NCBI GenBank assembly: GCA_964463175.1
Contig: CAYXBJ010000178.1
Span: forward strand, 52,431-116,430
Source of the DNA: an uncultured bacterium
GTDB lineage: Bacteria; Methylomirabilota; Methylomirabilia; Rokubacteriales; DASRDR01
Direction of reading: 5' to 3'
DNA: 64,000 bases
The notes under the pieces are model-generated. The model was not told the origin of the DNA. It did no database searches and saw only the letters and a program-made list of their open reading frames with translations. Position 1 is the first letter of the stretch, and the number at the start of each line of letters is the position of its first letter. This document shows, piece after piece, positions 26,882 through 47,854 of this stretch. A program made the translations under genes and the position numbers.

Positions 26882-26895
26882 CTCCTCTCTCCGAC

Positions 26896-28254: not shown

Positions 28255-28304
28255 GAAACCCTCACTCGACACGGTGTGTCCCGGCGGCATTGCGGCCCCC
28301 TAGC

Positions 28305-29590: not shown

Positions 29591-31222
29591 CTAGAAGTAG
29601 CTCTCCGGGACGACGACGACGTCGTTGGCGGCCAGCGGTAAGTCCTTGTCTTTCCTACCGCGCTTGATCACCTCGTTGAGGTCCACGACGAATGTCTCCT
29701 GGCGGCCATCAGGCAGCGTACGGATCACTTTGGTGCGATTTGGCGCTGCCTTGTCCGTGAATCCGCCCGCCATGGCGATCGCTTGGATCGCGGTCGTGGT
29801 CTGATCAAGCTGATAGGCTCCTGGCTTCTTCACTTCGCCCATCACGTAGAAGGTGTTCCCGACGGGCACCAGGAGAATATCTCCATCCTTGAGGAGGAAT
29901 TCCCTTGCCTTTGGATCCGCCCCGGAGAGATCCAGGATATGGATCTCCTCCGTCCCGGAGGCAAGTCGGCGCGTGAGCTTCACCTGGGTATGGAGGGCCT
30001 TCTCGGTGAACCCCCCGGCGAGCGTCAGCGCCCCCACCGCCGTCGTGGCCGGATCGAGCGGGTAAGCGCCCGGCTTCCGCACCTCACCCAGGACGTAGAA
30101 CGCGTTGCCGGACGGGACCAGGAGCGTGTCGCCGTCGCGGAGTGGATAGTCGCGGCCGGCACGATCCGACCCCGAGAGGTCCAGGACGACGGTCTGCTCC
30201 TCCCCGGAGGCTCCCCGGCGAATCAGCTTGACCTGGCTCTGACCCGCCTTCTCGGTGAACCCCCCGGCGATCGTCACCGCCCCGAAGGCGGTCGTCGACT
30301 TCTCGAGGGGATAGGCTCCGGGCTTCCGCACCTCGCCCGACACGAAGAACGTGTTGCCGCGCGGGATGAGCAGGGTGTCACCCTCGGCGATTTGCACGTC
30401 CCGGGCGCGCGGATCAGCCAGGTCGACATCGAGGCTCTCCTGACTGCCGTCCGCCCGCTTTCGCAGGATCTTGGCCCCGCTCGGCGCGGCCCGATCGGTG
30501 AAGCCGCCGGCGAGCGTCACCGCCTCGAGGGCGTTCGTCTCCTTGTCCATTGCGTAGGCGCCCTGGCGCAGAACCTCCCCCAGGACGAAGAACGAGGTCA
30601 GCTTCGGGACATAGACGGTGTCGCCGTTCTGGAGGAGGATGTTCTCGCCCGGCACGCCATCCAGCAGGCGTTTGAGATCGGCGCGGAACGCGACGCTGCC
30701 CGCCGCGCCCGGGGTCACAGGGCCATCGGACTGAGCCCCGCGAACGACCACGACTTGGCGCCCGGCGTTCTTGCCAGGCCCTCCGGCCTGGGACAGGACG
30801 TCTAGCAGCATTGTCTGGCCGGTCAGCGCGTAGGTCCCGGCCTTGTCCACCTCGCCCAGCACGAAGACGCGCTGGGAACGATACTCCGCCACGGTGACGG
30901 AGACCTGCGGGTTGACGAGATAGTCCTTCCCGAGGAGGTCCCGGAGGAGCGTCTCGATAGCACCCGGCGTGAGGCCGCCCACGCGAACATCGCCGATCAG
31001 CGGGAACTGGAACGAGCCGTCCCCCGAGACGACGACCTGCTTTGTCAGGTCGTCGTGCCCCCAGACGGTGATCTTCAGGACGTCCTTCGCCCCGACCTTG
31101 TACTCCGTCGGACCGCCGCTACCCGCAGCCTGGGCGGCAGCGGGACCCGCGGGAACGAGCAGGAGGGCAACGAGTAGGAGGGCGGTCATGGCCGCCGGAA
31201 ACCATCGCACACTTACACCCAT
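29591..31222 (-). CDS. OPX/Wza-family export protein, long paralog with four SLBB-type repeats; no C-terminal OM helix
   Basis: Signal peptide (MTALLLVALLLVPAGPAAAQA). EYKVGAKDVLKITVWGHDDL, then four GDT..(F/Y)V.GEV(R/K)KPGAY repeats. The last ~90 aa are near-identical to the short paralog. Start set at MGVSVRW (31220-31222); the track ORF's upstream 160 codons are not credible. Confidence 0.8.
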   Translation of the reverse strand: MGVSVRWFPAAMTALLLVALLLVPAGPAAAQAAGSGGPTEYKVGAKDVLKITVWGHDDLTKQVVVSGDGSFQFPLIGDVRVGGLTPGAIETLLRDLLGKDYLVNPQVSVTVAEYRSQRVFVLGEVDKAGTYALTGQTMLLDVLSQAGGPGKNAGRQVVVVRGAQSDGPVTPGAAGSVAFRADLKRLLDGVPGENILLQNGDTVYVPKLTSFFVLGEVLRQGAYAMDKETNALEAVTLAGGFTDRAAPSGAKILRKRADGSQESLDVDLADPRARDVQIAEGDTLLIPRGNTFFVSGEVRKPGAYPLEKSTTAFGAVTIAGGFTEKAGQSQVKLIRRGASGEEQTVVLDLSGSDRAGRDYPLRDGDTLLVPSGNAFYVLGEVRKPGAYPLDPATTAVGALTLAGGFTEKALHTQVKLTRRLASGTEEIHILDLSGADPKAREFLLKDGDILLVPVGNTFYVMGEVKKPGAYQLDQTTTAIQAIAMAGGFTDKAAPNRTKVIRTLPDGRQETFVVDLNEVIKRGRKDKDLPLAANDVVVVPESYF

Positions 31223-31269
31223 GGCGTGACCCTGGACAGCGCGAAACACCGGCAGACGTCGTGCGCGGC

Positions 31270-32463
31270 TCAGTAGGTCAGTATCACGCTCGCCTTGATG
31301 CGGTTGTCCGTGTAGCTGAACTCGTTGAAGTTCGAGTTCAGGTCCAGGTAGTTGTAGCCGATCTCGAACGCCAGCCACTTCTTCATCTGGTACTTGAGGC
31401 TCACCCCGGCCTCGAAGAACACGTCCTCGCGCTGGGCGGTCTTCGTCCCGACGGTGCTGTCCTCCGGATAGTCGTTGACGCCGCCGAGCCCTCTCACCCG
31501 GAGGACCAGCCGCTCGCTGAGGAAGTGCCGGACTTCGACACCAGCGTAGTTCGAGACGTAGTAGAGCTGTCCCTCGAACGTCGACTCGACGTTCGCTCGG
31601 CCACCGAAGACCCGGACCTCCGACGGCTCGCGGTACTTCCAGATGATGTTCCCCTCGACGATCAAGCCGTCCCAGTCCTTCACCAGCGGATTGTCGTAAT
31701 TCTTCCACTCCCAGCCCGCCTTGACGAGAAGCGTCGTCTTCGCGGTGACATCGCCCTTGAGACCGAGCCAGAACCGCCAGCCCTCGGAGTCGCGGACGGC
31801 GGCGGACGCGGCGTCATCGTAGCGAACCACCACGTAGTCGAGCTCGCCAAGGACCGACGTCTTCGGCAAGAAGCGATAGAAGAACGTTCCGGTCCCGGTG
31901 TAGTCTTGGCGGTTGAGATTCTCTTCGGGGGCATCGTAGTCGACGAGGAACCAGCGGAAGTTCGCGTCGAACGAATAGCGCTCCCGGAGGGTGTAGTTCG
32001 CTCCGGCGTCGAGCGTGTTCTCGGTCCGCTCGACAAGCTGCGTCAGCTCCGGCACCGGGAACCCGGCGAAGTCGTCGGTGATGATGAACCGATCGCTGAG
32101 CCGCAGCGAAAGATTCCAGGGAAAGTTGTACTGCCCATCGACCAGGGCGTTGTGGTGGACGGTGTTGAGATCGGTGTTGTCGGTGTACTCGAGGATGTCG
32201 GCGCGGTAGCCGATGCGCGCGGTGTAGTGGTTGCCCGGAAGCTCGATGAGGATACCCGGGCTGATGACCCAGATGAAATCCTGGATCTTGTCGGTGTTTG
32301 TGAGCAGGATGTTGTCGTCGTACTCGCCCGACAGCTCGAGCGACGTGAGTATCCGGAAGGGGCCGAGCTGGATGTTACCCTGGGCAGCCGCGGGCCCCGC
32401 CAGCCCCATGATCAGCAGCAGGGCGATTCCAACCGAGATCCCCGCAGCGCGCCCTCTCAACAT
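31270..32463 (-). CDS. Predicted outer-membrane beta-barrel protein (candidate OM partner of the helix-less OPX proteins)
   Basis: Signal peptide MLRGRAAGISVGIALLLIMGLAGPAAAQG. Alternating hydrophobic/aromatic beta-strand pattern throughout; aromatic C-terminus ...IKASVILTY. GC ~53-55%. Confidence 0.55.
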   Translation of the reverse strand: MLRGRAAGISVGIALLLIMGLAGPAAAQGNIQLGPFRILTSLELSGEYDDNILLTNTDKIQDFIWVISPGILIELPGNHYTARIGYRADILEYTDNTDLNTVHHNALVDGQYNFPWNLSLRLSDRFIITDDFAGFPVPELTQLVERTENTLDAGANYTLRERYSFDANFRWFLVDYDAPEENLNRQDYTGTGTFFYRFLPKTSVLGELDYVVVRYDDAASAAVRDSEGWRFWLGLKGDVTAKTTLLVKAGWEWKNYDNPLVKDWDGLIVEGNIIWKYREPSEVRVFGGRANVESTFEGQLYYVSNYAGVEVRHFLSERLVLRVRGLGGVNDYPEDSTVGTKTAQREDVFFEAGVSLKYQMKKWLAFEIGYNYLDLNSNFNEFSYTDNRIKASVILTY

Positions 32464-35308: not shown

Positions 35309-35653
35309 TCAGGCCTCGGCGAGCAGTCCCCGCACCACTTCGGTCAGGCGGTCGCGGAGCTCCGGATCATCCGGCTCGTAGACATCGAGGATTCCCAGCA
35401 CCCGGACCTTGGGTGCGTGCGCGGGCCAGTGCTTCCGGATGTAAGCCTCGTGTTCCGGTTCCATGACGCAGACCACGTTCGCCCACGCGAGATCCCGTGA
35501 CGTGAGCGGGCGGCCGCCGGGGTCGGGATCGACGCCGGCCGAGCGCGCTTCGTGCTCGCCGCGTCTCGCGACGCTCCAGCTGAGCACCTGAAAGATCTGC
35601 TCACCGACCCGGCTCCGGCAGACATTGCCTCGGCAGACGAACAGGACCCGCAT
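35309..35653 (-). CDS. Low-molecular-weight protein-tyrosine phosphatase (Wzb-like, LMW-PTP/ArsC fold)
   Basis: P-loop VCRGNVCRS (CX5R), DVYEPDD (D-P-Y-like general-acid region); 114 aa. Confidence 0.7.
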   Translation of the reverse strand: MRVLFVCRGNVCRSRVGEQIFQVLSWSVARRGEHEARSAGVDPDPGGRPLTSRDLAWANVVCVMEPEHEAYIRKHWPAHAPKVRVLGILDVYEPDDPELRDRLTEVVRGLLAEA

Positions 35654-35803
35654 GAGTCGAAGGATACCATCGGGGAGCGCCGGCTCTCTTCCGCGGCTCC
35701 GTCATGACGGACCGGGCGGCAGCAGCGGGCACGATCTCCTTGCCCGCGAGCACTTCCGGCGCCAGCGGCTCGGGCCGATCACGGCGGCGGCCCGCGGGCA
35801 ACG

Positions 35804-36502
35804 TCACGCTCGGCCCCCCTCGCCGAGCTGACCGTCGCTCAACGCCAGGACGCGGTCGGCGGCGCGGGCGAGCTCCGCGCTGTGCGTGACCAGCACCACC
35901 GCCGATCGGCCGCTGCGCGCCCGGGCCCGGAGCTCGGCGAGCAGGATGGCGGCGTTCTCCGGGTCCAGGTTCCCGGTGGGCTCGTCCGCCAGGATGACCG
36001 CCGGATCGTTGAGCACGGCGCGACAGAACGCGACCCGCTGCTGCTCCCCGCCGGAGAGCGCCGGCGGGTACTGCTCCGCCCGCTCCGACATGCCCAGTCT
36101 CTGGAGAAGGCTGAGCGCCTCCGTCTCGGCGGCCGCCCGCGCCCGCCCGACGTAGCGGGCAGCGAGGAGCACGTTCTCGCGCGCGGTCATCTCCGGGATG
36201 AGGTTGTACGTCTGGAACACGAAGCCCAGGTGCCGGCCGCGAAAGCCAGCCAATGCTCGACGGCTCGCGCCGGTCAGGCGCTCGTCGCCGAACCAGAGCT
36301 CGCCCCCGTCGCTCCGGTCGAGGCACCCCAGGAGGTTCAGGAGCGTGGACTTCCCCGACCCCGAGCGTCCGACGACGGCCAGAAGCTCCCCGCGGGTCAG
36401 GGCGAGGTCCACCCCGCGGAGCACCTCGAGCACGCGGCCGTCCGGGGTCCGGAAGCGTTTGGTCAGGCCGATTGCCCGGAGGAGCGGAGCGCCGGAGCCC
36501 AC
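35804..36502 (-). CDS. ABC transporter ATP-binding protein (LolD/MacB-NBD/FtsE-like)
   Basis: GRSGSGKSTLLN Walker A, LSGGEQQRVAFCRAV signature, ILADEPTGNLD Walker B. GTG start just downstream of the permease stop. The 5' 145 codons of the track ORF are an out-of-frame read of the permease gene. Confidence 0.8.
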   Translation of the reverse strand: MGSGAPLLRAIGLTKRFRTPDGRVLEVLRGVDLALTRGELLAVVGRSGSGKSTLLNLLGCLDRSDGGELWFGDERLTGASRRALAGFRGRHLGFVFQTYNLIPEMTARENVLLAARYVGRARAAAETEALSLLQRLGMSERAEQYPPALSGGEQQRVAFCRAVLNDPAVILADEPTGNLDPENAAILLAELRARARSGRSAVVLVTHSAELARAADRVLALSDGQLGEGGRA

Positions 36503-36506
36503 GGCG

Positions 36507-37697
36507 TCAGGCCCCGCGCCGGATCGCCTCGGCCGGCGACACCCGGAGGATTCGGACGGTCGCGTACGCGCCGGCGATCGCTCCGAGCACGAGCGCGAAC
36601 CCGAGGGCGAACACCACGAGCCGGCCCGAGAACAGGAACAGGTGCTGGCCCACCTGGGCCGCGCGGGTGTCGAACGCCATCCCGCCGAGCACCGCGACGG
36701 CCGTCCCGAGCAGGCCCCCGCCAAGACTGACGGCGACGCTCTCTCCCAGGACCTCGCCGAGCAGGCGCAGGTCGGTCGCGCCGAGGGCCTGCTTGATCCC
36801 GAAGTCGCGGATCCGCTCGAAGGTCGCGGCCGCGACCGTGTTCGAGAGGGACAGCCCCCCGATGAGGAGCCCGACTCCGGTGACGCCGGCCATGAGCCAG
36901 GAAAAGAACGCCGTCGATCCGGCCAGCTGGTTCGCAATCTCGCTCGGGGCGACGACGTTGACGCCGGCCACCTCGTGGCGGATGCGCTCCGCGAGCGCGT
37001 CCGGATCGACGCCGTCCGCCCACCCCACTGCCGCCCCCGTGTTGAGATCGCTGGGCGTCAGGAGCCCGGCCGTCATGAACAGCGCGCGGAGCGTGGGATC
37101 GAGCCCGAGCCAGAGCTCGCGAGCGTCCTCGATCGGCACGAGGGCGAAGCGGTCGGGCGCGGTGAGCAGGCGCTCGCCGACGCCGACGACCTCGAAGTCG
37201 CGCTCGCCGATTCGGAGTCGGCTGCCGGCGTGCAGGCCGTGCCCCGCCGCCAGGTCGGCGCCGACGACAGCGCGGCCCCGATCGGCCACGGTCAGGCTAC
37301 GCCCTTCCGCGATGGGGAACGTCCGGTAGTTCCGGTTCGGCGACGGGATGCTCAGATCGACGCCCAGGACGAGCTCCTGGGTCACCGAGAAGATCTGGGA
37401 CGTGGCCGGGTTCAGCGGGACCATGACCTGGGGCTGGACCGCCGCGACGCCGGGAACCCGGCGGATCGCCTCGATGGTCTGCCGGCGCAAGAGGCCGCCG
37501 GACGTGAAGCCCGTCCCGGTTCCGATGCCCGCGCCGGCCACCGAGATCTGGCCCAGCACGAAGCGGTGCCCCCCGTCGATGAACCGGCTGATGCGGTCAG
37601 AGAGCGCGCCCAGAGCCACGAGCCCCGCGATCCCGACGGCGATGCCGGCGACCGCGAAGCCATAGCCTCGTGGCAGCACGCGCCACCGCCGGCGCAT
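36507..37697 (-). CDS. ABC transporter permease, FtsX/MacB/LolC-E family (4 TM with large periplasmic domain)
   Basis: N-terminal TM. MacB-PCD-like periplasmic region. C-terminal FtsX domain (...IKQALGATDLRLLGEVLGESVAVSLGGGLLG...). Confidence 0.75.
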   Translation of the reverse strand: MRRRWRVLPRGYGFAVAGIAVGIAGLVALGALSDRISRFIDGGHRFVLGQISVAGAGIGTGTGFTSGGLLRRQTIEAIRRVPGVAAVQPQVMVPLNPATSQIFSVTQELVLGVDLSIPSPNRNYRTFPIAEGRSLTVADRGRAVVGADLAAGHGLHAGSRLRIGERDFEVVGVGERLLTAPDRFALVPIEDARELWLGLDPTLRALFMTAGLLTPSDLNTGAAVGWADGVDPDALAERIRHEVAGVNVVAPSEIANQLAGSTAFFSWLMAGVTGVGLLIGGLSLSNTVAAATFERIRDFGIKQALGATDLRLLGEVLGESVAVSLGGGLLGTAVAVLGGMAFDTRAAQVGQHLFLFSGRLVVFALGFALVLGAIAGAYATVRILRVSPAEAIRRGA

Positions 37698-37722
37698 CGC
37701 GCCTCGGCCGCTCACCCGTCGG

Positions 37723-38976
37723 TCACGCGGCCGCCTTTCGACGCGCGTCGAAGGCACGGACCACCAGCGCGACGTGGGTTCCGCCCCGGGCCAGGCCGTG
37801 CACCAGCGTCGTCTCCGGCCGGCTCTCCATCGCATGCGTCACGAACCGTAGATCTCGACGGATGGGCTCGGAGAGGGGGAGCGCCGGCACGGCGGAGCCC
37901 GCCACCGCGAGCGCCGCGGCGGCCACGCGCAGGCCGCCGAGGCCGGCGTGGTCTCCCGCGAGCGGGGTGAGCGCGGTCAGGCGGGCGGGCGCCGTGCCGA
38001 GCGCGTGCGCCACCACGTCCAGCTCGCAGGCGTCGTGCGCCGGATGGCCGCTTCCCGTGAGATACGCGACCTCGACCGCATCCGACGGAACGCCGGCGGC
38101 GGCGAGGGCGCGACGGACCGTCGCCGGGTCGCGGTGTCGTGTTGCCGGAAATCCGTGGGCGGGCGCCGGGAGATTGCCCCACGCGGCCCCGGCGAGCTCG
38201 CCGTAGACCCGCGCGCCCCGGGTCAGCGCCATCTCCGCCGACTCCAGGACGACGAACGTCGCTCCCTCCCCCAGCACGGTGCCGCTCGCCTGCCGGTCGA
38301 AGGGCCGACAGCCCTCGGGACCCGGCTCCGCTCGGGACATCGTTCCGAGCCGGCTCAGCTCTCGGTAAAGGATCGGGCAGATCTCGTCGCACCCGCCGGC
38401 GAGGACCATGCTCGCCCGTCCCGCGGCGATCAACGCGGCGCCCCGGGCGACCGCCAGGTCGCCGGCCACGTCGACCGCGTTCAACGTGAGCATGGGGCCG
38501 CGCACGCCAACCGCGATCGACACCTGCGCGGCCATGGCGTTCATCACCGTGTTCGGGAAGGTGAGCGGCGAGAGGCCGAAGACCCCTCGCTGGAGAAATC
38601 CGAGCGCGAAGGCCTCCGGCGACCGGAAGTCGCCCCAGTGGGAGCCGAGGACGAGCCCGAGACCGGAGAGCTGCTCCGACTGGAGACTCGCGTCGCCCAG
38701 GGCCAAGCGGGCGGCCACGACCGCGAGCTGGCTCGCGCGCGCCAGCCGGCGCGCTTCGCTCTCCGGCAGGGACAGGACGCGATCGTCGACCTCCGCGCCC
38801 AGCCGGCTCGAGCAGTCGTCGGTCGGAAACGCCCGGATCGGCGCGACCGCGGAGCGGCCGCCGGCGAGGGCCTCGGCGACCGCGGCCCCGTTGCCGGCGC
38901 CGAACGCGCTGACGCTTCCGACGCCGGTGACGACGATGCGCGGCCGGCCGCCGCGCCGGCGCTCAGTCGCCGGCAT
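37723..38976 (-). CDS. Beta-ketoacyl synthase-like protein lacking the active-site Cys (chain-length-factor/KS-beta-like)
   Basis: Thiolase-fold KAS architecture (IVVTGVGSVSAFG..., C-terminal GGTHVALVV). The nucleophile position (canonically ACSS/ACAS) reads NAVDVAGDLA, and the His-His motifs are degenerate. Overlaps the upstream KS stop by 14 nt. Confidence 0.7.
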   Translation of the reverse strand: MPATERRRGGRPRIVVTGVGSVSAFGAGNGAAVAEALAGGRSAVAPIRAFPTDDCSSRLGAEVDDRVLSLPESEARRLARASQLAVVAARLALGDASLQSEQLSGLGLVLGSHWGDFRSPEAFALGFLQRGVFGLSPLTFPNTVMNAMAAQVSIAVGVRGPMLTLNAVDVAGDLAVARGAALIAAGRASMVLAGGCDEICPILYRELSRLGTMSRAEPGPEGCRPFDRQASGTVLGEGATFVVLESAEMALTRGARVYGELAGAAWGNLPAPAHGFPATRHRDPATVRRALAAAGVPSDAVEVAYLTGSGHPAHDACELDVVAHALGTAPARLTALTPLAGDHAGLGGLRVAAAALAVAGSAVPALPLSEPIRRDLRFVTHAMESRPETTLVHGLARGGTHVALVVRAFDARRKAAA

Positions 38977-40183
38977 CGAGGCGGCGCGGCGCGGCCACGC
39001 GCCGGAGCAGAAGGCTCAAGTTCTGACCGCCGAACCCGAAGGAGTTCGACAAGGCGTACTCGATCGAGGCCCGGCGGGCGACGTTCGGCACGCAGTCGAA
39101 CGCGACCTCGGGGTCCGGCTCCGCGAGATTGGCGGTGGGCGGAACGAGACCGTGGACGAGCGTCAGCACCGTCGCGATCGCCTCCAGCGCGCCGGCCGCC
39201 GCCATCGCGTGTCCGACCAGCGACTTGTTGGCGCTCACCAGCACCGCGTCCGGGTCGAACAGCTTGCGGAGCGCGGCGGCCTCGGTGCGATCGTTCTGGG
39301 GCGTGCCGGTCCCGTGCGCGTTGACGTATCCCACGGCGCTCGCCGGGACCCCGGCGCGGTCCAGGGCCTCCGCCATCGCCCGAACGCTCCCCTCGCCGTC
39401 GGGATGGGGCGAGGTCAGGTGGTACGCGTCGGTGCTCAGCCCGTAGCTGGAAAGCTCCGCGTAGCCGCGGGCGCCGCGCGCGCGCGCGTGGGCCTCGTCT
39501 TCCAGCACGACGAACCCGGCGCCCTCGCCGAGCGACATGCCCCGGCGATCCCGGGCGAACGGCCGGCACGGGTCGGGGTCGAGGAGCTTGAGGGCGTTGA
39601 AGCCCATGAAGCAGATGCGGGTCATCGCGTCCACGCCGCCCGCGAGCGCCACCGGCACCTCGCCGGCGGCGATCAGCTCCGCGGCCAGCCCGAGCGCCGC
39701 CCCGCCCGAGCTGCAGGCGAGGACCACGGTCTCCTTGGGGCCGGTCGTGCCGTAGCGGCGCGCGACGACGTCGGCATGGCTGAAGGGCAGGATCGTTCGG
39801 AGGGCGGTCCGGAGCTGCGGGTCGTCGGTCCCCTCGCGCTCGCGGTGCCAGAACCAGTCCTCGGCCTCCAGCATGCCGCCTCCGATGCCGCCGACCACCA
39901 CGGCCGCGGGGCGGAGCTCGCGGCGCGACAGGCCGGAGTCGCGGACGGCCTCGTCCACCGCGGCCACCGCGAAGCGGTCGGCTCGAGCCCGACGCGGCGA
40001 CACGCGGGACAGGACGGTGGCGGCGGGAACCTCGGCGCCGATCCGGGCGCGGAATCCCGTGGTGTCGAAGAGGCCGATGGGGCCGATCGTGCACCGCCCC
40101 GCGGTGAGACCATCCCAGAAGGCGTCCCGACCCGCGCCGTACGCGCTGACGACCCCCAGGCCCGTGACCAGAACCCGCTTCAC
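38963..40183 (-). CDS. Beta-ketoacyl-ACP synthase (KAS II / FabF-like), catalytically intact
   Basis: VLACSSG (Cys), NAHGTGT (His), KSLVGHAMAAAG (His), GFGGQN C-terminus. Confidence 0.85.
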   Translation of the reverse strand: MKRVLVTGLGVVSAYGAGRDAFWDGLTAGRCTIGPIGLFDTTGFRARIGAEVPAATVLSRVSPRRARADRFAVAAVDEAVRDSGLSRRELRPAAVVVGGIGGGMLEAEDWFWHREREGTDDPQLRTALRTILPFSHADVVARRYGTTGPKETVVLACSSGGAALGLAAELIAAGEVPVALAGGVDAMTRICFMGFNALKLLDPDPCRPFARDRRGMSLGEGAGFVVLEDEAHARARGARGYAELSSYGLSTDAYHLTSPHPDGEGSVRAMAEALDRAGVPASAVGYVNAHGTGTPQNDRTEAAALRKLFDPDAVLVSANKSLVGHAMAAAGALEAIATVLTLVHGLVPPTANLAEPDPEVAFDCVPNVARRASIEYALSNSFGFGGQNLSLLLRRVAAPRRLDAGD

Positions 40184-40190
40184 CTGGTGG

Positions 40191-40466
40191 TCACGCCCCC
40201 GGGGCCCGCGCGGCGACGAAGCGCACCAGGGCGCCGAACGTCCCGAAATGCGTCGCCACGTCCTCCCCTTCCTGGATCACGATGCCGAACCGCTCCTCCA
40301 GCGCGATCGACAGCTCGATGAAGTCGAGCGAGTCGAGCCCGAGCGTGCCCTCGATGCCCTTGGGGAGCGGCGTCTCGGAGGTCAGCGCGGACAGACGCGC
40401 CGGGTCGAACCGGAGTCGCTTGACGATGATGTCGCGCAACTCCCCGATGATCGCTCGCTCGTCCAT
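40191..40466 (-). CDS. Acyl carrier protein
   Basis: LGLDSLDFIELSIALEERFG (DSL phosphopantetheine site); 91 aa. Confidence 0.8.
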   Translation of the reverse strand: MDERAIIGELRDIIVKRLRFDPARLSALTSETPLPKGIEGTLGLDSLDFIELSIALEERFGIVIQEGEDVATHFGTFGALVRFVAARAPGA

Positions 40467-40484
40467 CCGTCCTCCCGTCCCTGC

Positions 40485-41444
40485 CTACCGGCCCCAGAGG
40501 ACCGCCCCGTACTCGCTTCGCCACGTGGCGGTCAAGAGCCACGGCTCCGGCGTCCCCTCGCGTCGCGTCCGGGCCAGCGCGAGGAGCGGACCCATCGCCA
40601 GCGCTTCGCCCAGCCGGGGCACCGCCGGGGGTGCGCCGATCTCCTGGAGCATCCGCGCCTCGGCGGCTCCCCGGCCGGCGCCGGCCGCGCCGCTCCACAC
40701 GAGGCGCGGTGCCTGGCCGTCGAGCGCCTGCCCGAGCACCGCGGCGACCGCACGCCGCGCCCCCGACGGCCCGGCGAGCGCGGACGCCCAGCGGAGACGG
40801 CCCGCCCCGCCCGCGTCCAGCAGAAGGCATGCGGCCCCCTCGATGAGCGGGCCGGCGTACAGCCGGCGAGCGCGGCGGAACAGGTCCCAGACCTCGTGGA
40901 ACGCCTCGACGGCGAGCACGAGCACCCGGTCCGCGCGCCCCTCGGCCAGCCAGCGCGCGGCCCACCAGAGGGCCTGCAGCGTCGCCGGAGCGCCACCCAT
41001 GAGGTTCACGTAGGCGCCACGGATCCCGAGCTCGATCGTCACCTCCCCCGGCACCGCGCTGGGTGAGGTGTACGGGAAGTGAAGCGTCGTCGAGGTCTCG
41101 TCCTCGAGGAACGCCCGGTTGGCGGCCGCGTAGCCCGTCGCGCTCACATACAGGATACCCGTTCGCGGCCCGGCCAGGTCGTCCTCGGCCAGACCGGCGT
41201 CGGCGACGGCCGCCTTGGCGGCGGCGACCGCGAACAGGCACTCGCGGGTCGCGCGGCGGAATCGATCGCCGTCCAGGACCGGCGTCGGCGCGGTCACGAG
41301 GCCACGACCGTGCTCGCCGGGTCGCGTCGACGCATCGGGGAGCCCGGGAATCCCGTCGCCCCAGCCTGTCACCACTCCGATCCCGAGGATCCGGGGCGTG
41401 GGCGGAGTCGCGAGCTCCGGTGGCGCCAGTGCGGCCGCCCTCAC
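40485..41444 (-). CDS. KS N-terminal-domain-like protein without catalytic Cys (degenerate ketosynthase half)
   Basis: ILGIGVVTGWG start. The region aligned to the KS nucleophile reads GAYVNLMGGAPATLQALWWAARWL (no Cys), then ADRVLVLAVE. Lacks the C-terminal His-His half. Overlaps the upstream KS gene (ATGA). Confidence 0.5.
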   Translation of the reverse strand: MRAAALAPPELATPPTPRILGIGVVTGWGDGIPGLPDASTRPGEHGRGLVTAPTPVLDGDRFRRATRECLFAVAAAKAAVADAGLAEDDLAGPRTGILYVSATGYAAANRAFLEDETSTTLHFPYTSPSAVPGEVTIELGIRGAYVNLMGGAPATLQALWWAARWLAEGRADRVLVLAVEAFHEVWDLFRRARRLYAGPLIEGAACLLLDAGGAGRLRWASALAGPSGARRAVAAVLGQALDGQAPRLVWSGAAGAGRGAAEARMLQEIGAPPAVPRLGEALAMGPLLALARTRREGTPEPWLLTATWRSEYGAVLWGR

Positions 41445-42685
41445 GGCGTCTCGTCCCCCACCGCCAGCACCAGACTAGCGTTGCAGCCGCCGAAGCCCAG
41501 CGACGTCGACAAGCTCACGCGCGGGCGCCAGGCGCGCGCCGTATTCGGCACGCAGTCCAGGTCGCAGGCGGGATCCGCCTCGCCATAGTTCAGCGTGGGC
41601 GGCACCTGGCCGTGACGGCCCGCGAGCAGACACATGATGGCCTCGAGCGTCGCCGCCGCGCCCATGGTGTGGCCAAGGTGCGCCTTGATGGAGTTCACCG
41701 GGATCTCGTATGCGCGCCGGCCGAGGACGCGCTTGAGCACCTCGGTCTCCAGGCGGTCGTTCGCCGGCGTCCCGGTTCCGTGCGCGCTCACCATCTCCAG
41801 CGCGTCCGGCTCGAGCCCCGCCTCCGCAAGCGCCGCGCGCACGGACAGCTCGAGCCCCCGGCCTTCCGGATCCGGGGCCGTGATGTGGGCGCCGTCCGCC
41901 GTGCTCGCGTGGCCGAGAAGGTGTCCGATCGGGGCGCGCCCGCGGCGAGCCGCCGCGTCGACGCGCTCCAGCACCACCAGGCCCGCTCCCTCGCCCAGGA
42001 GGAGACCGTTGCGCCGCCGATCGAACGGGCGGACGGGGTCCCGCGTCAACGAGCGCAGCGCGTTGAAGCCGCGCTGGACGAAGCGGCAGAGCGCATCCGC
42101 CCCGCCGGCGAGCACGACGTCGGCCTGCCCCGCCCGCAGGAGATCGGCGGCGAGTCCCAGGCTCGTGGCGCCCGACGCGCACGCGGTGGTCACGGTCAGG
42201 ACCGGCCCCCGGGCCCCCAACCAGCGCGCCAGGTTCCGCGTCGGTCCGTCGTACGCGGAGCTGCTCAAGGCGGCCAGCGGGGCCGTTGCCGCGAGGGCAC
42301 GACTCGCCTCGTCGATCCCGCCCAGCGCGGTGCCGATCACCACGCCGATCCGGGCGCCCTCGGGCAGCGCGTCTCTCAGCCCCGCCGTCTCGAGAGCCTC
42401 GCGGGCCGCGTGAACGAGGAATCGCGTGGTCCGGCAGTACGGGTTGCGTCGGGAGGGCCCGGCGCCACCCGGTGGCGGCGCCGAGACCTCGCGCCGCAGC
42501 TTCTTGATCTCGCCCCCTCGCGTGACGCGGAGGTCGTCCACCCGAAAGCCTTCGATCTCGCTGATGCCGGAGGCGCCCGTCACCAGCCCGGCCCAGAACG
42601 CGTCGAGGTCCTGCCCGATCGCGGTCACCACGCCGGCGCCCGTGATCGCGACGGGAGACACGCGGGGCGCGAGGGCCCGCGTCAC
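41441..42685 (-). CDS. Beta-ketoacyl-ACP synthase (KAS I/II-like), catalytically intact
   Basis: VTTACASG (Cys), SAHGTGT (His), KAHLGHTMGAAA (His), GFGGCN. Confidence 0.85.
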   Translation of the reverse strand: MTRALAPRVSPVAITGAGVVTAIGQDLDAFWAGLVTGASGISEIEGFRVDDLRVTRGGEIKKLRREVSAPPPGGAGPSRRNPYCRTTRFLVHAAREALETAGLRDALPEGARIGVVIGTALGGIDEASRALAATAPLAALSSSAYDGPTRNLARWLGARGPVLTVTTACASGATSLGLAADLLRAGQADVVLAGGADALCRFVQRGFNALRSLTRDPVRPFDRRRNGLLLGEGAGLVVLERVDAAARRGRAPIGHLLGHASTADGAHITAPDPEGRGLELSVRAALAEAGLEPDALEMVSAHGTGTPANDRLETEVLKRVLGRRAYEIPVNSIKAHLGHTMGAAATLEAIMCLLAGRHGQVPPTLNYGEADPACDLDCVPNTARAWRPRVSLSTSLGFGGCNASLVLAVGDETP

Positions 42686-43039
42686 GCGAGGGGCCCCCGG
42701 TCATCGTGGGTGCTGAGCGGCCGATCGATCCCCGCGGGAACCGGACGGCCCGCCGACGCGACAGTCACGCCCACGGGACGCTCCCGATCGACGGAGGGCG
42801 GAGTCAGCGCGCGCGCCGGCAGCGCGAGCACGCGTCGGAGCGGCGAGAGAGGTCGAGCGGGAAAACCCCGACAGCGCCCGGGGCGCCGGCCGTGAGGGGC
42901 CCAACCCACGAGGCTGGATGGGATCCGCCGCGCCCACCCCCGCGGCATACGTACCTCATAGGCCGCTCATTGTGGGCATCGGCCATGGCGTTCGTCAACA
43001 ACCGCGACGGAGGCAGCCGGGCCCGGCGGAGCGTCCCGC

Positions 43040-44011
43040 TCAGCGATTCAGGGGCCGGCGGAGGAAGCCGAAAAGACCCTGGGGCAGGAAGATGACCATG
43101 AGGATGAACAGAACCCCCACCGGAATGAGGTAGTACTCCGTGAAGTAGCGGGACACGCCCTCCCGGAGCAGCAGGAAGAAGGCCGCCCCCGCGAACGGCC
43201 CGACCAGGGTTCCGATGCCTCCCATGACGTTGAAGATGACCACTTCCCCCGAGACCACGAAGAACACGAAGTCCGGCGCGGCGAACTTGTTCTGGAGCGC
43301 GTACAGCACGCCGGCCAGGCCGGCGACGAGCCCCGACAGCATCACCGCCACCATCTTGTACCGCTCCACGTGATACCCGATCGCCCGGGTGCGCGGCTCG
43401 TTCTCCCGGATCGACTGGAGCACCATCCCGAACGGCGATCGGGTCACGCGGCGGACGGCGAGGTACGAGAGCGTCACCACCGCCAGCACGAACCAGTGGA
43501 ACGTCGACAGCGTGAAGCGCCAGTCCCCCAGGCCGGGTATCGAGAAGGGCGGCTGTCTGAAGGTCAGGCCGTTCTCCCCGCCGGTCACCTTCGTCCAGGT
43601 GAAGATGACGACGTAGAAGATCTGGGAGAACACGAGGGTGGAGATCGCGAAGTAGATGTCGCGCAATCGCGTCGCGAAGAAGGCGACGAAGACGGCGACC
43701 GCGCCCGCCCCGACGAGACCGTAGAGCCCCGCCAGCCAGAGGCTCGGCGGCTTGACCGTGAGGAGGGCGGCGGCCGCCCCGTACATGCCGAGCCCGAAGA
43801 AGGCCGAATGGCCGAACGACACCATCCCGGCGTACCCGATGAGGATGTCCGAGGACATCGCGAGCAACCCCCAGATCAGGATCTCGGTAACGAAGCGCTG
43901 CCAGAACGGCGGCAGGACCAGCGGCGTCGCGGCGAGCGCGGCCAGCACGGCCCCGAAGCCGATCCAGTAGCCCATCGCGCCCCGATCCGATCGCGCGGTG
44001 CCCGCCGTCAT
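43040..44011 (-). CDS. Branched-chain amino acid (HAAT-family) ABC permease, LivM-like
   Basis: ATG overlaps the upstream stop (ATGA). Ten TM segments, ...SFGHSAFFGLGMY...; 323 aa. Confidence 0.8.
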   Translation of the reverse strand: MTAGTARSDRGAMGYWIGFGAVLAALAATPLVLPPFWQRFVTEILIWGLLAMSSDILIGYAGMVSFGHSAFFGLGMYGAAAALLTVKPPSLWLAGLYGLVGAGAVAVFVAFFATRLRDIYFAISTLVFSQIFYVVIFTWTKVTGGENGLTFRQPPFSIPGLGDWRFTLSTFHWFVLAVVTLSYLAVRRVTRSPFGMVLQSIRENEPRTRAIGYHVERYKMVAVMLSGLVAGLAGVLYALQNKFAAPDFVFFVVSGEVVIFNVMGGIGTLVGPFAGAAFFLLLREGVSRYFTEYYLIPVGVLFILMVIFLPQGLFGFLRRPLNR

Positions 44012-44868
44012 TTCGGGGTCGGCACGAACAGCCCGGTCGGCCGGACGAGCATGGTGAGGACCAGCACGACGAAGGACACGATCACCGCCTGCGCCGGACT
44101 GACCACGATCGCCGCGTAGGCCTCGACCAGGCTGATGAAGATCGCGGCCAGGATCGACCCGCCGAGGTTGCCCATGCCCCCGACCACGACCACGATGAAG
44201 GCGCGGAGCGTGAAGTCGAGGCCCATGGTCTGGGTGACCCCGCCGAGCGGCCCGAACAGAACCCCGCTCGCGGCGGCCATCGCCGCGCCGATCGCGAAGA
44301 CCCCGGTGTGCACTAGGGGCACCGGGATGCCCATCGCCGAGGCCATCACCCGGTCCTGGGTGGTGGCCCGGATCCAGATGCCGAATCGGCCGTGCTTCAG
44401 GAAGAGCCACAGGGCGAGGATGATCGCGCCGGACAGCCCCGCGGTCAGGATCCGGTACCACGGGTACTCGAGGTAGAAGAGCGTGAACCGGCCCGTCACC
44501 GGCTCCTGGATCTGCCGCGCCGAGGGACCCCACTGCCAGATCGCATACTTCTGGAGGACGAGCGACACGCCGAAGGTCGCGAGGATCGTCGTCAGGGGAT
44601 CGCGGCCGAGCAAGGGTCGCAGCGTCGTCGCCTGCAGGAGGGCGCCGAAGACGCCGATGATCAGCGCGGCCACCACCAGGGCGAGCCAGAAGCTGCCCGT
44701 CGCCGCGATGGTCGCGGCGCCGACGAAGCCTCCGAGCATCACGAGGTCCCCGTGAGCGAAGTTGACGACGTCCATGATCCCGAAGATGAGCGTCAGCCCC
44801 GACGCCACGAGGGCCAGGATCATTCCGTTCACGAGCCCGTTGACGGTCTGGATAAGGATCTGGTCCAC
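44008..44868 (-). CDS. HAAT-family ABC permease, LivH-like
   Basis: MDQILIQTVNGLVNGMILALVASGLTLIFGIMDVVNFAHGD... typical LivH N-terminus. Confidence 0.85.
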   Translation of the reverse strand: MDQILIQTVNGLVNGMILALVASGLTLIFGIMDVVNFAHGDLVMLGGFVGAATIAATGSFWLALVVAALIIGVFGALLQATTLRPLLGRDPLTTILATFGVSLVLQKYAIWQWGPSARQIQEPVTGRFTLFYLEYPWYRILTAGLSGAIILALWLFLKHGRFGIWIRATTQDRVMASAMGIPVPLVHTGVFAIGAAMAAASGVLFGPLGGVTQTMGLDFTLRAFIVVVVGGMGNLGGSILAAIFISLVEAYAAIVVSPAQAVIVSFVVLVLTMLVRPTGLFVPTPK

Positions 44869-44872
44869 GGAG

Positions 44873-45579
<707 letters not shown>

Positions 45580-45580
<1 letters not shown>

Positions 45581-46368
45581 CAGGTCTTGAGGTAGACCTC
45601 CTGGACGCGGGCGTTCGCCTGGATCTCGGCGGGCGTGCCCTCGGCCAGGACCTCCCCGTAGTGCAGCACGGTGATCGTGCGGGCGAGCCCCATCACGACC
45701 TCCATGTCGTGCTCGACAATGAGGATAGTGTAGTCCGCGGCGATCCGGCGGACGAGCTCCACCGTGGCCCGCGTCTCGACGGCGCTCATGCCGGCAGTCG
45801 GCTCGTCCAGGCACAGGACTCGCGGCTCGGTGGCGAGCGCGATGCCGATCTCGAGGTTGCGCTGCTCGCCGTGCGACAGGTTGGCTGCCTGCTCCTCCGC
45901 CTTCTCCTCGAGGCCGACCTCCGCCAGCACGCGCCGCGCGCGCTCCACGATGTCGGGATACGCCAGATGGTGTCGCCAGAGATTCCAGGCGTGCCGGCGG
46001 GACTGGACGGCGATGCGCACGTTCTCCAGCACGCTGGCGCCCGGGAGGATGTTGGTGATCTGGTAGCTCCGCGCGATCCCCTTGTGGGAGATCGCGTGGG
46101 GCGGGAGCCCCGTGACGTCGTCCCCGTCCAGGACGATGCGGCCGGCGGTGGGACGCAGTACCCCCGTCAGGCAGTTGAAGAGCGTGGACTTACCCGCGCC
46201 GTTGGGGCCGATGACGGCGCGGACCTCGCCGGGCACCACGGCGATCGAGACCTGGTTCAGGGCGGTCAGCCCGCCGAACTGCACGCTCAGCCCTTCGGTC
46301 CGGAGGATCGGCGGAGCGGCTCCCGGCTGGGGTCGGGACACCGCTCCGCCGGCGCGCGCGTCGGTCAC
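45580..46368 (-). CDS. HAAT-family ABC ATPase, LivG-like
   Basis: GPNGAGKSTLFN, LSHGEQRNLEIGIAL, LCLDEPTAGM. Confidence 0.85.
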
Positions 46369-46377
46369 GAGGCCGTG

Positions 46378-47682
46378 CTACGAGAACTGGCAGGCCGGTG
46401 GGACGATCGTCTTTTCCTTGGGGATCACGTCGAGGACCTTGTACTTCCCGCCGCGGAGCTCGAACAGGAGCTCCCGCGTGAACGCCTGGTGGTCCTCCTT
46501 GCGGAGGATCTTGTCGCCCTGCGGGAAGTCCTCGCCTTCCTTCATCTCCAGTCCTTCCAGGGCCTCGATCAGTTTCATCGTGTCCTTCCGCCCCTGGAAG
46601 CCCGACTTCTGCATGCCGATCCGGAGCGCGTTGACTCCCTCGAAGTTGGACTGCACGTAGCGGTCTGGCAGGGGCCCGCTCGGATCGATCTGCTTCAGGC
46701 GCGCCGCACCGTCCTCGAGGAACCGCTTGTTGTGCGGCGTGTTGAGCACGCCCTCCATCACCGGAATGTAGCGGTCGATGCCGACGAACCCCTCGCCCTT
46801 GCTGCCGATCGCCGGCAGTGCGGTCGTCACGGCGATGGCGCCATCGCCGGCCAGCCGGTACTTCTTGCTGAGCCCCAGGTCGAAGCTCTGGGTGACGAAC
46901 GCGATGCCCTGAGGTCCGAAGAAGATCCCGAACAACCCGTCGAAGTTCCCGGTGACCTTCGCCAGGAACGGCGTCATGTCCGCCGTCCCCAGGGGGATAC
47001 CGGTGGTCTCGACGACGGTGCCGCCGTTCTTCGAGATCTGCTCGGTGTAGGCATCGCGGGTCGACTGCCCCCACGCGTAGTCGGCGTACGCGATGTGCCA
47101 GCGCTTGCCGATCTTGTTGACCATGTACGGGGCGGCCGCCACCGCCTGGGCCGGCGCGAAATCGAACGGCCGGAAGGTGAAGCGGCTGCACTTGGTCGTG
47201 GTGATCGTGGTGTCGAGGCACACCGTGATCATGTTGACGAGCTTGTGCTCCTCGTAGACCGGCATGCAGGCGAGGCACACGTTGGAGAGATAGCCGCCGG
47301 CGTGGGCGTCGATCTGATCGTCGACGACGAGCTTCTCGGCCTTGCGCCGGCCGACGTCGGGTTTCGACTCGTAGTCGGCGACGAGAAGCTCGATCGGCCG
47401 GCCGTTGACGCCACCCGACTTGTTGATGCGGTCCACCGCCATCTGCACGCCGACGAGCGCGGTCTTACCGCCGGAGGCCGCGGTGCCCGAGAGGGGCTGG
47501 AGCGTCCCGATCTTGAAGGGCTTGGCCTGTCCGAACGCCTCCCGCCACGGCGCCGGCACCAGCATCGTCGCCCCGAGGGCGCCGGCCACCCCGGCGGACA
47601 GACCGAGGAACCGCCGGCGCGTCGTCTTGCCGCTCCACCACATCTCCCGCGTCCAGGGCTCGTCCTGCCAGCGCTCCGCCAT
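46378..47682 (-). CDS. Periplasmic substrate-binding protein, Leu/Ile/Val-binding (type I PBP) family, Tat-type signal
   Basis: TTRRRFLGLSAGVAGALGA signal, then FKIGTLQPLSGTAASGGK... GGAGGAAT Shine-Dalgarno upstream of ATG 47682. Confidence 0.8.
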   Translation of the reverse strand: MAERWQDEPWTREMWWSGKTTRRRFLGLSAGVAGALGATMLVPAPWREAFGQAKPFKIGTLQPLSGTAASGGKTALVGVQMAVDRINKSGGVNGRPIELLVADYESKPDVGRRKAEKLVVDDQIDAHAGGYLSNVCLACMPVYEEHKLVNMITVCLDTTITTTKCSRFTFRPFDFAPAQAVAAAPYMVNKIGKRWHIAYADYAWGQSTRDAYTEQISKNGGTVVETTGIPLGTADMTPFLAKVTGNFDGLFGIFFGPQGIAFVTQSFDLGLSKKYRLAGDGAIAVTTALPAIGSKGEGFVGIDRYIPVMEGVLNTPHNKRFLEDGAARLKQIDPSGPLPDRYVQSNFEGVNALRIGMQKSGFQGRKDTMKLIEALEGLEMKEGEDFPQGDKILRKEDHQAFTRELLFELRGGKYKVLDVIPKEKTIVPPACQFS

Positions 47683-47759
47683 CGTCAGATTCCTCCCTGT
47701 CAGGTGTCGGAAGGTCGGCTGAGAGTCGTCCGCTCCGGGTGGCCCCCTCTATACTCCAG

Positions 47760-47785
47760 CGCGAGGCCCGGGCGCAAGCCTCGCG
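47760..47785 (-). terminator. Hairpin downstream of the PaaK-like gene
   Basis: CGCGAGGC-ccgggcgcaa-GCCTCGCG: perfect 8-bp stem with a 10-nt loop, ~70 nt after the stop at 47855. Confidence 0.3.
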
Positions 47786-47854
47786 TGATCGCCGGCTCGA
47801 CGCGCTGTCGGATCGTCGCGCCGGCACCCTCGCGCGCGAAGCCGAGCGCGCGAC

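Follow-up and report, generated by a model that had tools for sequence, protein, structure and literature searches.

The 64,000-nucleotide stretch of contig CAYXBJ010000178.1 analyzed here (GenBank assembly GCA_964463175.1, positions 52,431–116,430; "the window") comes from an uncultured member of the Rokubacteria and carries a compact lipid-type synthase gene cassette on its minus strand. By gene content, this cassette looks like the conserved core of an uncharacterized, Rokubacteria-specific envelope-lipid cluster that has 11 genes in its full form. It most likely comprises two pairs of a ketosynthase with its chain-length factor (KS:CLF pairs), KS1:CLF1 and KS2:CLF2, sharing a single acyl carrier protein (ACP), and it is joined to a MacB-type ATP-binding cassette (ABC) exporter. 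On balance, we lean toward the view that it is a specialized acyl-lipid synthase with its own exporter, a variant of the KS/CLF systems of aryl polyene (APE) and ladderane type.

A Seven-Gene Synthase-Exporter Operon

The GC content of the window is ∼70%, and its closest protein matches come from metagenome-assembled genomes (MAGs) of Methylomirabilota/Rokubacteria. Eight open reading frames (ORFs) with strong coding signal, identified by Pfam, occupy the minus strand between 35309 and 42685. An original prediction, made from the sequence alone, had proposed the order and coordinates of these eight genes, and both are borne out by Pfam and ORF reading. The first seven are as follows.

41441–42685, minus strand: KS1, active FabF-like ketosynthase, 414 amino acids, GTG start (PF00109 and PF02801)
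40485–41444, minus strand: CLF1, 319-amino acid KS-like protein, a predicted, catalytically dead partner (N-terminal part of PF00109, 36.5 bits)
40191–40466, minus strand: ACP, 91 amino acids, LGLDSLD motif (PF00550)
38963–40183, minus strand: KS2, active FabF-like ketosynthase, 406 amino acids (PF00109 and PF02801)
37723–38976, minus strand: CLF2, full-length KS homolog, 417 amino acids (PF00109, 103 bits; PF02801, 18.7 bits)
36507–37697, minus strand: MacB/FtsX-type (type VII ABC) permease with periplasmic core domain, 396 amino acids (PF12704, 68 bits; PF02687, 53.5 bits)
35804–36500, minus strand: exporter ABC ATPase, 232 amino acids, GTG start (PF00005, 104 bits)

The tight packing of 35804–42685 is best explained by a single seven-gene operon. 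As read from the sequence, KS1 and CLF1 overlap by 4 nt in a GTGA; KS2 and CLF2 overlap by 14 nt. The remaining gaps are 18 nt (CLF1 to ACP), 7 nt (ACP to KS2), 25 nt (CLF2 to permease), and 6 nt (permease to ATPase), the permease starting at 37697 rather than at the ORF limit of 37835. All seven ORFs are intact, and GC content at third codon positions (GC3) is near 0.9 in those for which it was computed. A σ70-like site lies upstream of KS1 at 42998–42969, with one such site found against 0.1 expected from shuffled sequences. The ORF list and Pfam reveal no acyltransferase, ketoreductase (KR), dehydratase (DH), enoyl reductase (ER), thioesterase, AMP-ligase, or membrane-fusion gene in the operon, in agreement with the original prediction, and Rfam finds no RNA family anywhere in the window.

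Each Ketosynthase Is Followed by a Dead Partner

Aligned with E. coli FabF, both KS1 and KS2 retain the Cys-His-His triad and the Lys. CLF2 has lost both His residues and has Asp in place of the Cys (its relatives have Gly or Thr there, never Gln), and in CLF1 this position is Gly. The earlier calls of two active β-ketoacyl synthases and of a full-length homolog without the Cys therefore stand.

CLF1 had been described as an N-terminal-only KS-like protein. This is correct for its sequence match to PF00109, but not for its predicted structure: the AlphaFold2 model, built from a 44-sequence alignment (pLDDT 84.8, pTM 0.87), is a whole, compact thiolase fold, although only the N-terminal part matches KS models by sequence. 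The best Foldseek matches of this model in the PDB are CLFs, namely Iga12 (6kxd_B; E = 7.7e-15, query TM-score 0.76), AntE (6smo), and the act CLF (1tqy_B). Superposition on Iga12 and AntE gives query TM-scores of 0.76–0.78, with a sequence identity to these CLFs of 13%–20%, and the N-terminal half of CLF1 aligns with CLF2 of the window at an hhalign probability of 89%. Because the predicted fold of CLF1 is CLF-like, and because CLF1 overlaps KS1 as CLF2 overlaps KS2, we favor the reading of the cassette as two KS:CLF pairs with one ACP, and we infer that both pairs form physical heterodimers. The coupling of translation between an active KS and a dead KS homolog, together with the CLF fold of the CLF1 model, is as found in KS/CLF systems generally.

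The CLF1 family is small: out of 1.84 billion, 34 cluster representatives reach E ≤ 1e-30, and 152 reach E ≤ 1e-10. Remote relatives outside Rokubacteria, of 330–350 amino acids and 60–75 bits, occur in Verrucomicrobiota and on a contig with Planctomycete-type genes. In a Chthoniobacterales MAG (L092, 8799–12527) and on a second contig (P0204, GCA_041443065.1), the CLF1 relative directly follows a KS of 401–402 amino acids; this bare pair precedes small unannotated ORFs, and its neighbors are uninformative. Bare pairs of a KS and a short CLF may be common in bacteria of the Planctomycetes-Verrucomicrobia-Chlamydiae group.

The Cassette Is Probably Distinct from Housekeeping Fatty-Acid Synthesis

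As thresholds for housekeeping proteins we used the NCBIfam equivalog cut-offs for fabF (TIGR03150, 493.75 bits) and acyl_carrier (TIGR00517, 70.45 bits). All KS-type proteins score below the former (KS1, 331; KS2, 362; CLF2, 173; CLF1, 30.5 bits), and the ACP, at 36.8 bits, scores below the latter. In a neighbor-joining tree with seven reference sequences, in which deep nodes are weak, the Rokubacteria members of KS1, KS2, and CLF2 group into separate clades at 100% support, CLF2 being monophyletic within Rokubacteria, and none is sister to E. coli FabF. Since scores fall below both cut-offs and each KS family has its own Rokubacteria clade, sequence comparison supports a dedicated rather than a housekeeping cassette, as had been proposed. 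The same tree groups KS1 with ApeO and CLF2 with the Streptomyces CLF, each at 80%. We set both groupings aside as possible long-branch attraction, for which pairwise identities offer no corroboration.

KS1 is 39% identical to Rhizobium tropici NodE, 37% to Streptomyces KSα, and 34% to E. coli FabF. For KS2, the identity to the same FabF is 39%, and KS1 and KS2 share 37%–38% of residues with Streptomyces KSα. Among PDB sequences, the best match of KS1 is 9s5h_B (273 bits), and those of KS2 are Thermus thermophilus FabF (302 bits) followed by 9s5h_B (297.5 bits); Iga11 is matched at 215 bits by KS1 and at 242 bits by KS2. The best pairwise reference for the ACP is ApeE (32% over 85 amino acids, E = 1.5e-12), with E. 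coli AcpP at E = 1.8e-6.

A MacB-Superfamily Exporter without a Fusion Protein

The MacB core domain, FtsX domain, and ATPase all exceed their Pfam cut-offs, which places the transporter in the MacB superfamily of type VII ABC exporters. Transporters of the MacB/Lol class extract membrane-embedded substrates. Assignment to a particular family within this class fails. The permease has weak NCBIfam matches only, to ADOP, DevC, and MacB, and the ATPase matches LolD (198.6 bits against a cut-off of 307.75) and MacB best. Neither the operon nor the conserved cluster that its relatives carry encodes an HlyD-type membrane-fusion protein, so this is not a MacAB-TolC or DevBCA system; nor is it LolCDE, given the sub-cut-off LolD score and the single permease gene.

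The Cassette Is the Core of a Rokubacteria-Wide Cluster

Scanning one genome per species with the CLF1 family recovered 80 loci, nearly all labeled Rokubacteria or Methylomirabilota, 49 of which span the whole cluster; gene order was read with a tblastn panel. The order KS1, CLF1, ACP, KS2, CLF2 recurs in 73–80 of the 80 independent species loci (KS1 in 78), which argues that the arrangement is not due to chance. An FtsX-type permease was found in 61 of the 80, many of which are cut at a contig end, and the ABC ATPase gene is present in 49/49 complete loci by the selection used. In every locus that spans the region (49/49), KS and exporter genes lie together with small gaps, so the predicted coupling of the synthase to a MacB-type exporter holds across species.

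The full cluster reads DUF8321 lipoprotein, Lip_A_acyltrans acyltransferase, KS1, CLF1, ACP, KS2, CLF2, GT2, FAD-dependent halogenase, FtsX permease, and ABC ATPase. All 49 complete loci have GT2, 47 have DUF8321, 40 the halogenase, and 31 the acyltransferase. The halogenase has a GxGxxG motif, a conserved Lys, and GWFWWIP, corresponding to the WxWxIP signature of flavin halogenases, and its best NCBIfam match is CmlS (229 bits). In the acyltransferase, which carries an HLGNWE motif, the best NCBIfam matches are the phosphatidylinositol mannoside (PIM) acyltransferase (91 bits) and LpxL (56 bits). A cognate acyltransferase of the lysophospholipid acyltransferase type had been suggested for the cassette; in relatives an LpxL/PatA-type gene does lie directly upstream of KS1, but the window itself has none. 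GT2 has the DGDGQHD motif of GtrB/ArnC/DPM1-type enzymes and matches PpgS and AglJ best. The DUF8321 protein has a lipobox; our Pfam/NCBIfam scan gave no match for it, whereas precomputed tables list PF26995 and PF26997. By eye only, its NYC, NHAVLVYG, and YDPND stretches (L002, 6971–7810) recall a papain- or transglutaminase-like Cys-His-Asp triad.

Genes downstream on the same strand encode a small lipoprotein (25 loci), a PMT_2/ArnT-like GT-C glycosyltransferase (36 loci), and HpnJ (35 loci), the last scoring 738 bits against an equivalog cut-off of 577.6 in the locus on which it was scored (L065), with rSAM_ladder_B12 at 77 bits. In L023 (18074–20224) and L033 (17680–20315), the ATPase gene is followed by the small lipoprotein, which has no Pfam or NCBIfam match, and the GT-C, then by hpnJ. 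A GT2 of the polyprenyl-phosphate-sugar synthase type and a GT-C make up the usual two-step scheme of periplasmic glycosylation. The upstream flanks of distant loci, read from the sequences, look like glmM, nnr, tsaE, and radC. We found no description of this Rokubacteria cluster in the literature that we searched.

Several loci carry additional genes. A short-chain dehydrogenase/reductase (SDR) lies on the same strand directly upstream of DUF8321, mostly within 30 nt, in L051 (6311–7075) and likewise in L027, L037, L044, L054, L055, L058, L068, L072, L073, L079, and L084. We rejected it as the dedicated KR, as it is a generic KduD, glucose dehydrogenase, or FabG-like protein; in these particular lineages it may supply the pathway with a ketoreductase. 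In one subclade (L016, 12714–14201; L018, 10313–11809; L019, 16886–18559), the FtsX permease and ATPase genes are separated by a gene for a TcuA-like, FAD-dependent flavoprotein (588 bits to NF006130). L017 (4768–6844) is rearranged, with the acyltransferase after the ACP and then a 412-amino acid methyltransferase-domain protein, the sole such locus of the 80.

The Lineage of the Window Has a Reduced but Conserved Form

The nearest full-form loci (L006, L007, L010, L012, and L014) lack only the halogenase gene. Comparison with them reveals where genes have been lost from the window.

42686–43039, minus strand: upstream intergenic region, with the σ70-like site and a DUF8321 remnant
37698–37722, minus strand: junction of the GT2 deletion, with L006 13872–14799 having no counterpart; distant relatives also have the halogenase here
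35654–35803, minus strand: junction of a ∼3.8-kb deletion, where the alignment to L010 stops at 16394 (window 35820) and resumes at 20181 (window 35652)

The DUF8321 remnant, at 42758–42914, is 157 nt from the 3′ end of the gene with 70%–72% identity (blastn against L006, L007, and L010); L006 6960–7688 and 7844–8717, comprising most of DUF8321 and the whole acyltransferase gene, have no counterpart. At the GT2 junction, the alignment to L006 breaks at window 37715/37716. The third region, L010 16349–20167, encodes a phosphatidylinositol phosphate (PIP)-synthase-like CDP-alcohol phosphatidyltransferase, an HpnL-like membrane protein, and HpnJ, and is also present in L006, L007, L012, and L014. 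These three genes were lost along with DUF8321, the acyltransferase, and GT2, and their joint loss hints that they act together. No homolog of GT2, the halogenase, the acyltransferase, DUF8321, or the genes of the 3.8-kb segment occurs elsewhere in the 64-kb window.

None of the 49 complete loci is as reduced as the window, and the same reduced layout with the same flanks is found in L003 (83% CLF1 identity) and on the P0011 contig (81%), making three diverged lineages. Between the window and L003, the ratio of nonsynonymous to synonymous substitution rates (dN/dS) is 0.10–0.20 at dS of 0.28–0.63 for all seven genes, no higher than in full-form lineages. By this measure the seven genes are under purifying selection and the reduced cassette is a functioning unit rather than debris; because selection has been retained on synthase and exporter alike, the reduced core appears still to work.

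Neighboring Genes

The eighth gene of the minus-strand block lies 150 nt beyond the ATPase.

35309–35653, minus strand: low-molecular-weight (LMW) phosphotyrosine phosphatase, 114 amino acids, CRGNVCRS at residues 7–14 (PF01451, 37.3 bits; cut-off 23.2)

This phosphatase is unusually short. Only the first 43 of 144 Pfam profile positions align, and it retains the CX5R loop and a DP motif near the C terminus. It has the P-loop and exceeds the Pfam cut-off, and two Wza proteins, a Wzz/GNVR protein, and a bacterial tyrosine kinase (BY-kinase)-type ATPase are encoded at 26120–31708, as expected for a Wzb-type enzyme. From sequence and gene context, it fits the role of Wzb for the adjacent polysaccharide locus rather than that of a cassette partner. 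The original prediction was right about its position and strand, but a functional coupling to the cassette is not supported. In the nearest full-form relatives, three lipid genes separate ATPase and phosphatase, and in distant relatives neither a polysaccharide locus nor a phosphatase is near the cluster; the two genes are close in the window because of the 3.8-kb deletion, and most relatives do not have them side by side.

The polysaccharide locus itself (3342–34831) is a complete one of Wzx/Wzy type. It encodes a UDP-glucose dehydrogenase, five GT4 glycosyltransferases, a NodB-type deacetylase (11169–12239), a Wzx-like flippase, an initiating sugar transferase (Bac_transf), a DegT protein, a GAF histidine kinase, and a 985-amino acid Wzy_C-TPR fusion. 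Also present are a split Wzc (Wzz/GNVR plus the BY-kinase-type P-loop ATPase), the two Wza paralogs, a BBP2_2 porin, a σ54 response regulator, and a single-domain response regulator. Two ORFs of the locus, 8485–9954 and 17647–18783, have no Pfam match.

On the other side of the cassette, 43040–53575 (minus strand) holds genes for LIV-type ABC importers in two sets, and between these lies the gene for a PaaK-like AMP-binding ligase (47855–49363). This LIV block recurs in the close relatives L002, L003, and the P0011 contig, where it again lies upstream of the cluster. We considered the ligase, 5 kb upstream of the cassette, as a starter-activating enzyme and rejected it: it sits inside the LIV importer genes, and this neighborhood is confined to close relatives.

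A Model for the Cassette and Its Alternatives

In the model that we favor, KS1:CLF1 and KS2:CLF2 would build a specialized acyl chain of defined length from malonyl units on the dedicated ACP, one pair perhaps initiating and the other extending. Chain building would borrow FabD of the cell and probably its reductive type II fatty-acid synthase (FAS II) enzymes, perhaps FabG, FabZ, and FabI. The MacB/LolCDE-type transporter would then extract the lipid product from the inner membrane toward the outer envelope without a fusion protein. In full clusters, the flavin halogenase would halogenate the chain, and GT2 and the acyltransferase, together equivalent to a split ApeJ, would esterify it to a sugar-bearing membrane lipid, with DUF8321 as a periplasmic lipoprotein. 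Since the anchoring genes are gone from the lineage of the window, hand-off there would proceed through an enzyme encoded in trans or in some other way. What kind of chain is made, that it is destined for the envelope, and how it is off-loaded are all inferred.

Some observations weigh against the model. No member of the cluster has a known product, and with no KR, DH, or ER in the cluster (a generic SDR abuts it in 12 loci only), gene content does not fix the oxidation state of the chain. FabF, NodE, and KSα are all about equally similar to KS1 and KS2 (34%–39%), and the thin neighbor-joining tree does not tell chemistry of the fatty-acid kind from that of the polyketide kind. No sequence relationship links CLF1 to ApeC, at an hhalign probability of 0.2%. 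Only the type of transporter points to a periplasmic or outer-membrane destination, and as the window has neither an acyltransferase nor a thioesterase for chain release, the hand-off is hypothetical.

KS/CLF pairs and an ACP without KR or DH are by definition a minimal type II polyketide synthase (PKS), and the gene set of the cassette fits this definition. Its product could accordingly be an unreduced or partly reduced polyketide, such as a phenolic or pyrone lipid, pumped out free for antibiosis or signaling. The true flavin halogenase of the relatives is in keeping with this, as such enzymes usually act on aromatic or enolizable substrates, and KS1 and KS2 are as near to Streptomyces KSα as to FabF. 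CLF2 joins the Streptomyces CLF in 80% of bootstrap trees, with the caveat on long branches given above. We nevertheless think a polyketide unlikely. None of the 80 loci contains a cyclase, aromatase, or tailoring oxygenase. The conserved accessories are of lipid-anchoring types (an ApeJ-like GT2 and acyltransferase, a lipoprotein, a GT-C, and hpnJ), and the exporter belongs to the MacB/Lol class, for membrane-embedded substrates. The decarboxylating Gln of aromatic-PKS CLFs is absent from both CLFs (Gly in CLF1, Asp in CLF2, Gly or Thr in CLF2 relatives), and this, together with the lack of any cyclase-like family among the conserved genes of the 80 loci, led us to reject an aromatic minimal type II PKS specifically. 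It is also rather improbable that the proteins are FAS II paralogs tuning the chain length of bulk membrane fatty acids beside a functionally unrelated ABC transporter. KS2 does resemble FabF (39% identity to the E. coli protein, 302 bits against that of T. thermophilus), the lack of a dedicated KR, DH, and ER implies dependence on FAS II, and operons of KS and ACP genes without reductive enzymes are known in kasA-kasB-acpM and nodFE. Against this, the four KS-type proteins and the ACP are all below equivalog cut-offs, KS genes and transporter genes stay together, separated by small gaps, in 49/49 complete loci, and a dedicated product is suggested by the dead CLFs as well as by the halogenase, GT2, and acyltransferase accessories.

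The original prediction further proposed that the lipid is joined to, or anchors, the neighboring polysaccharide, and the LMW phosphatase could then be in control. A complete Wzx/Wzy-type locus does adjoin the cassette, the phosphatase lies 150 nt downstream on the same strand with no terminator in a simple scan, and the layout is common to three lineages. We found no evidence, however, that the cassette serves the polysaccharide, and regard the proposal as very unlikely: the adjacency was made by the 3.8-kb deletion and is not conserved in relatives, which have three lipid genes in between or, when more distant, no such locus or phosphatase nearby. The phosphatase also has obvious partners in Wza, Wzz/GNVR, and the BY-kinase ATPase, and the window has no acyltransferase that could link the lipid to the sugar. 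Hardly credible is the idea of a decaying remnant, whose anchoring and tailoring genes are lost and whose function is gone, with stop codons yet to accumulate. Four deletions have indeed removed DUF8321, the acyltransferase, GT2, and the CDP-alcohol phosphatidyltransferase/HpnL-like/HpnJ segment, a degree of reduction met in none of the 49 complete loci. Yet all seven ORFs are intact with high GC3, dN/dS between two reduced-form copies is 0.10–0.20, and a third diverged lineage retains the same seven genes. A specialized acyl-lipid synthase with its own exporter accordingly remains our preferred reading.

Implications

Rokubacteria are abundant uncultured soil bacteria, and to our knowledge their many KS genes have been counted as "biosynthetic potential" with no product known. 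Four Rokubacteria KS-type genes can now be placed in one cluster, conserved across the 80 recovered species loci, whose gene content looks like that of an envelope-lipid rather than an antibiotic pathway. This would carry the newly recognized notion of CLFs in systems of the fatty-acid type over to a second phylum, in which each cluster has two pairs. The natural deletion series (full, without halogenase, and core only) shows which genes make up a minimal functional unit.

A bolder and doubtful, if not unreasonable, possibility is that Rokubacteria make an undescribed class of envelope lipid, combining two KS/CLF heterodimers, halogenation, a split-ApeJ sugar ester, and a tie to hpnJ, of which the core would be an autonomous off-loading and export module. 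If so, the core in the window would work without an in-cluster acyltransferase, glycosyltransferase, or thioesterase, implying a novel route by which an ACP-bound chain is off-loaded and exported. Should the product be a halogenated glycolipid or a hopanoid-associated lipid, it would be a candidate soil biomarker for the phylum.

Comparison with Known Systems

The original prediction held that the cassette resembles APE, type II PKS, and NodFE systems and matches none of them exactly; our comparisons agree. NodF/NodE likewise combine an orphan ACP and a KS, without reductive enzymes, to make a special acyl chain through housekeeping FAS II. In contrast to the cassette, NodFE has neither CLFs nor an exporter; the ACP barely matches NodF (25%, E = 0.02), and there is no nod context here. 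The cispentacin proteins AmcF/AmcG/AmcB were rejected as an identity, with KS1, CLF1, and the ACP scoring 255.6, 18.5, and 37.4 bits against NCBIfam equivalog cut-offs of 325, 80, and 80.

The rhizobial AcpXL/FabF1XL/FabF2XL/LpxXL system makes very-long-chain fatty acids for lipid A. At the level of general gene content, it too has an ACP and two FabF-like KSs, partly relies on FAS II, and corresponds to the relatives of the cassette in its Lip_A_acyltrans acyltransferase; the hpnJ neighborhood of these relatives recalls the hopanoid-lipid A conjugates of Bradyrhizobium. The Rokubacteria cluster differs in lacking FabZXL and the alcohol dehydrogenase, in having dead CLFs and an ABC exporter, and, in relatives, in the halogenase, GT2, and an acyltransferase nearer to the PIM acyltransferase than to LpxL.

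The exporter shares its domain set (MacB core, FtsX helices, and a separate LolD/MacB-like ATPase) with MacB, LolCDE, and DevCA, but has no MacA/DevB, has one permease gene, and misses all NCBIfam equivalog cut-offs. DevBCA, which exports polyketide-derived heterocyst glycolipids, offers a functional parallel. As for the CLFs, the best superposition of the CLF1 model is with Iga12 and AntE, two short CLFs from the KS/CLF heterodimers Iga11/Iga12 (ishigamide, 6kxd) and AntDE (6smo) of highly reducing or Gram-negative type II PKSs; the KR and DH of ishigamide biosynthesis and the cyclases of the anthraquinone pathway have no counterpart in the Rokubacteria cluster.

In Cluster I for ladderane synthesis in anammox bacteria, amxFabF2/amxFabFmut form a KS/CLF-like heterodimer with amxACP, called by its authors the first CLF in a fatty-acid pathway (10.64898/2026.05.19.726425). 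The likeness lies in a FabF-type KS, a dead FabF homolog that acts like a CLF, and a dedicated ACP, with a lipid and not an antibiotic as the product of the pathway. PDB entry 9s5h, with two KS chains of 413 and 412 amino acids, is probably this heterodimer, although the code is absent from the preprint text and the relevant literature. Cluster I also has amxFabZ and ladderane-type radical S-adenosylmethionine (SAM) enzymes, both absent from the window and from the conserved cluster, whose only conserved radical SAM neighbor is HpnJ. Rokubacteria differ further in having two pairs, one with a strongly shortened CLF, and an ABC exporter, with the halogenase, GT2, and acyltransferase added in relatives.

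Compared by BLASTP with the 18 Ape proteins of E. coli CFT073, the Rokubacteria proteins match only ApeO, ApeR, ApeE, and ApeJ, with KS1 and KS2 30%–35% identical to ApeO/ApeR; ApeC, ApeI, ApeP, ApeQ, ApeM, ApeH, and ApeK have no match. The cassette is therefore not an APE cluster, because ApeC, the DH, KR, adenylation enzyme, thioesterase, and MMPL transporter are unmatched, and the core set of Grammbitter et al. (ApeO, ApeR, ACPs, ApeC, ApeI/P, ApeQ, and ApeM) is incomplete here. More precisely, the Rokubacteria cluster lacks ApeH adenylation, the ApeQ KR, the ApeI/P DH, and a thioesterase. The APE system has one KS:CLF pair and a homodimeric ApeR rather than two KS:CLF pairs, and exports through the MMPL protein ApeM and LolA/LolB-like proteins rather than a MacB-type ABC transporter.

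The Rokubacteria cluster also shares features with the APE systems of E. coli CFT073 and Xenorhabdus doucetiae (ApeA–R). Both have type II FAS-like KSs, a truncated dead CLF partner, a dedicated ACP, and a dedicated Lol-flavored envelope export system (PMC8253772). The two domains of ApeJ correspond to separate genes in the Rokubacteria relatives, though neither gene is in the window: GT2 is 33% identical to ApeJ residues 10–233 (E = 2e-25) and the acyltransferase 31% identical to residues 362–549 (E = 8e-15). The role proposed for ApeJ in Xenorhabdus, in which the enzyme first attaches GalNAc to a phosphatidyl intermediate and next transfers the polyene carried by ApeE onto this sugar (10.1101/2020.12.19.423268), provides a concrete model for the full Rokubacteria cluster.

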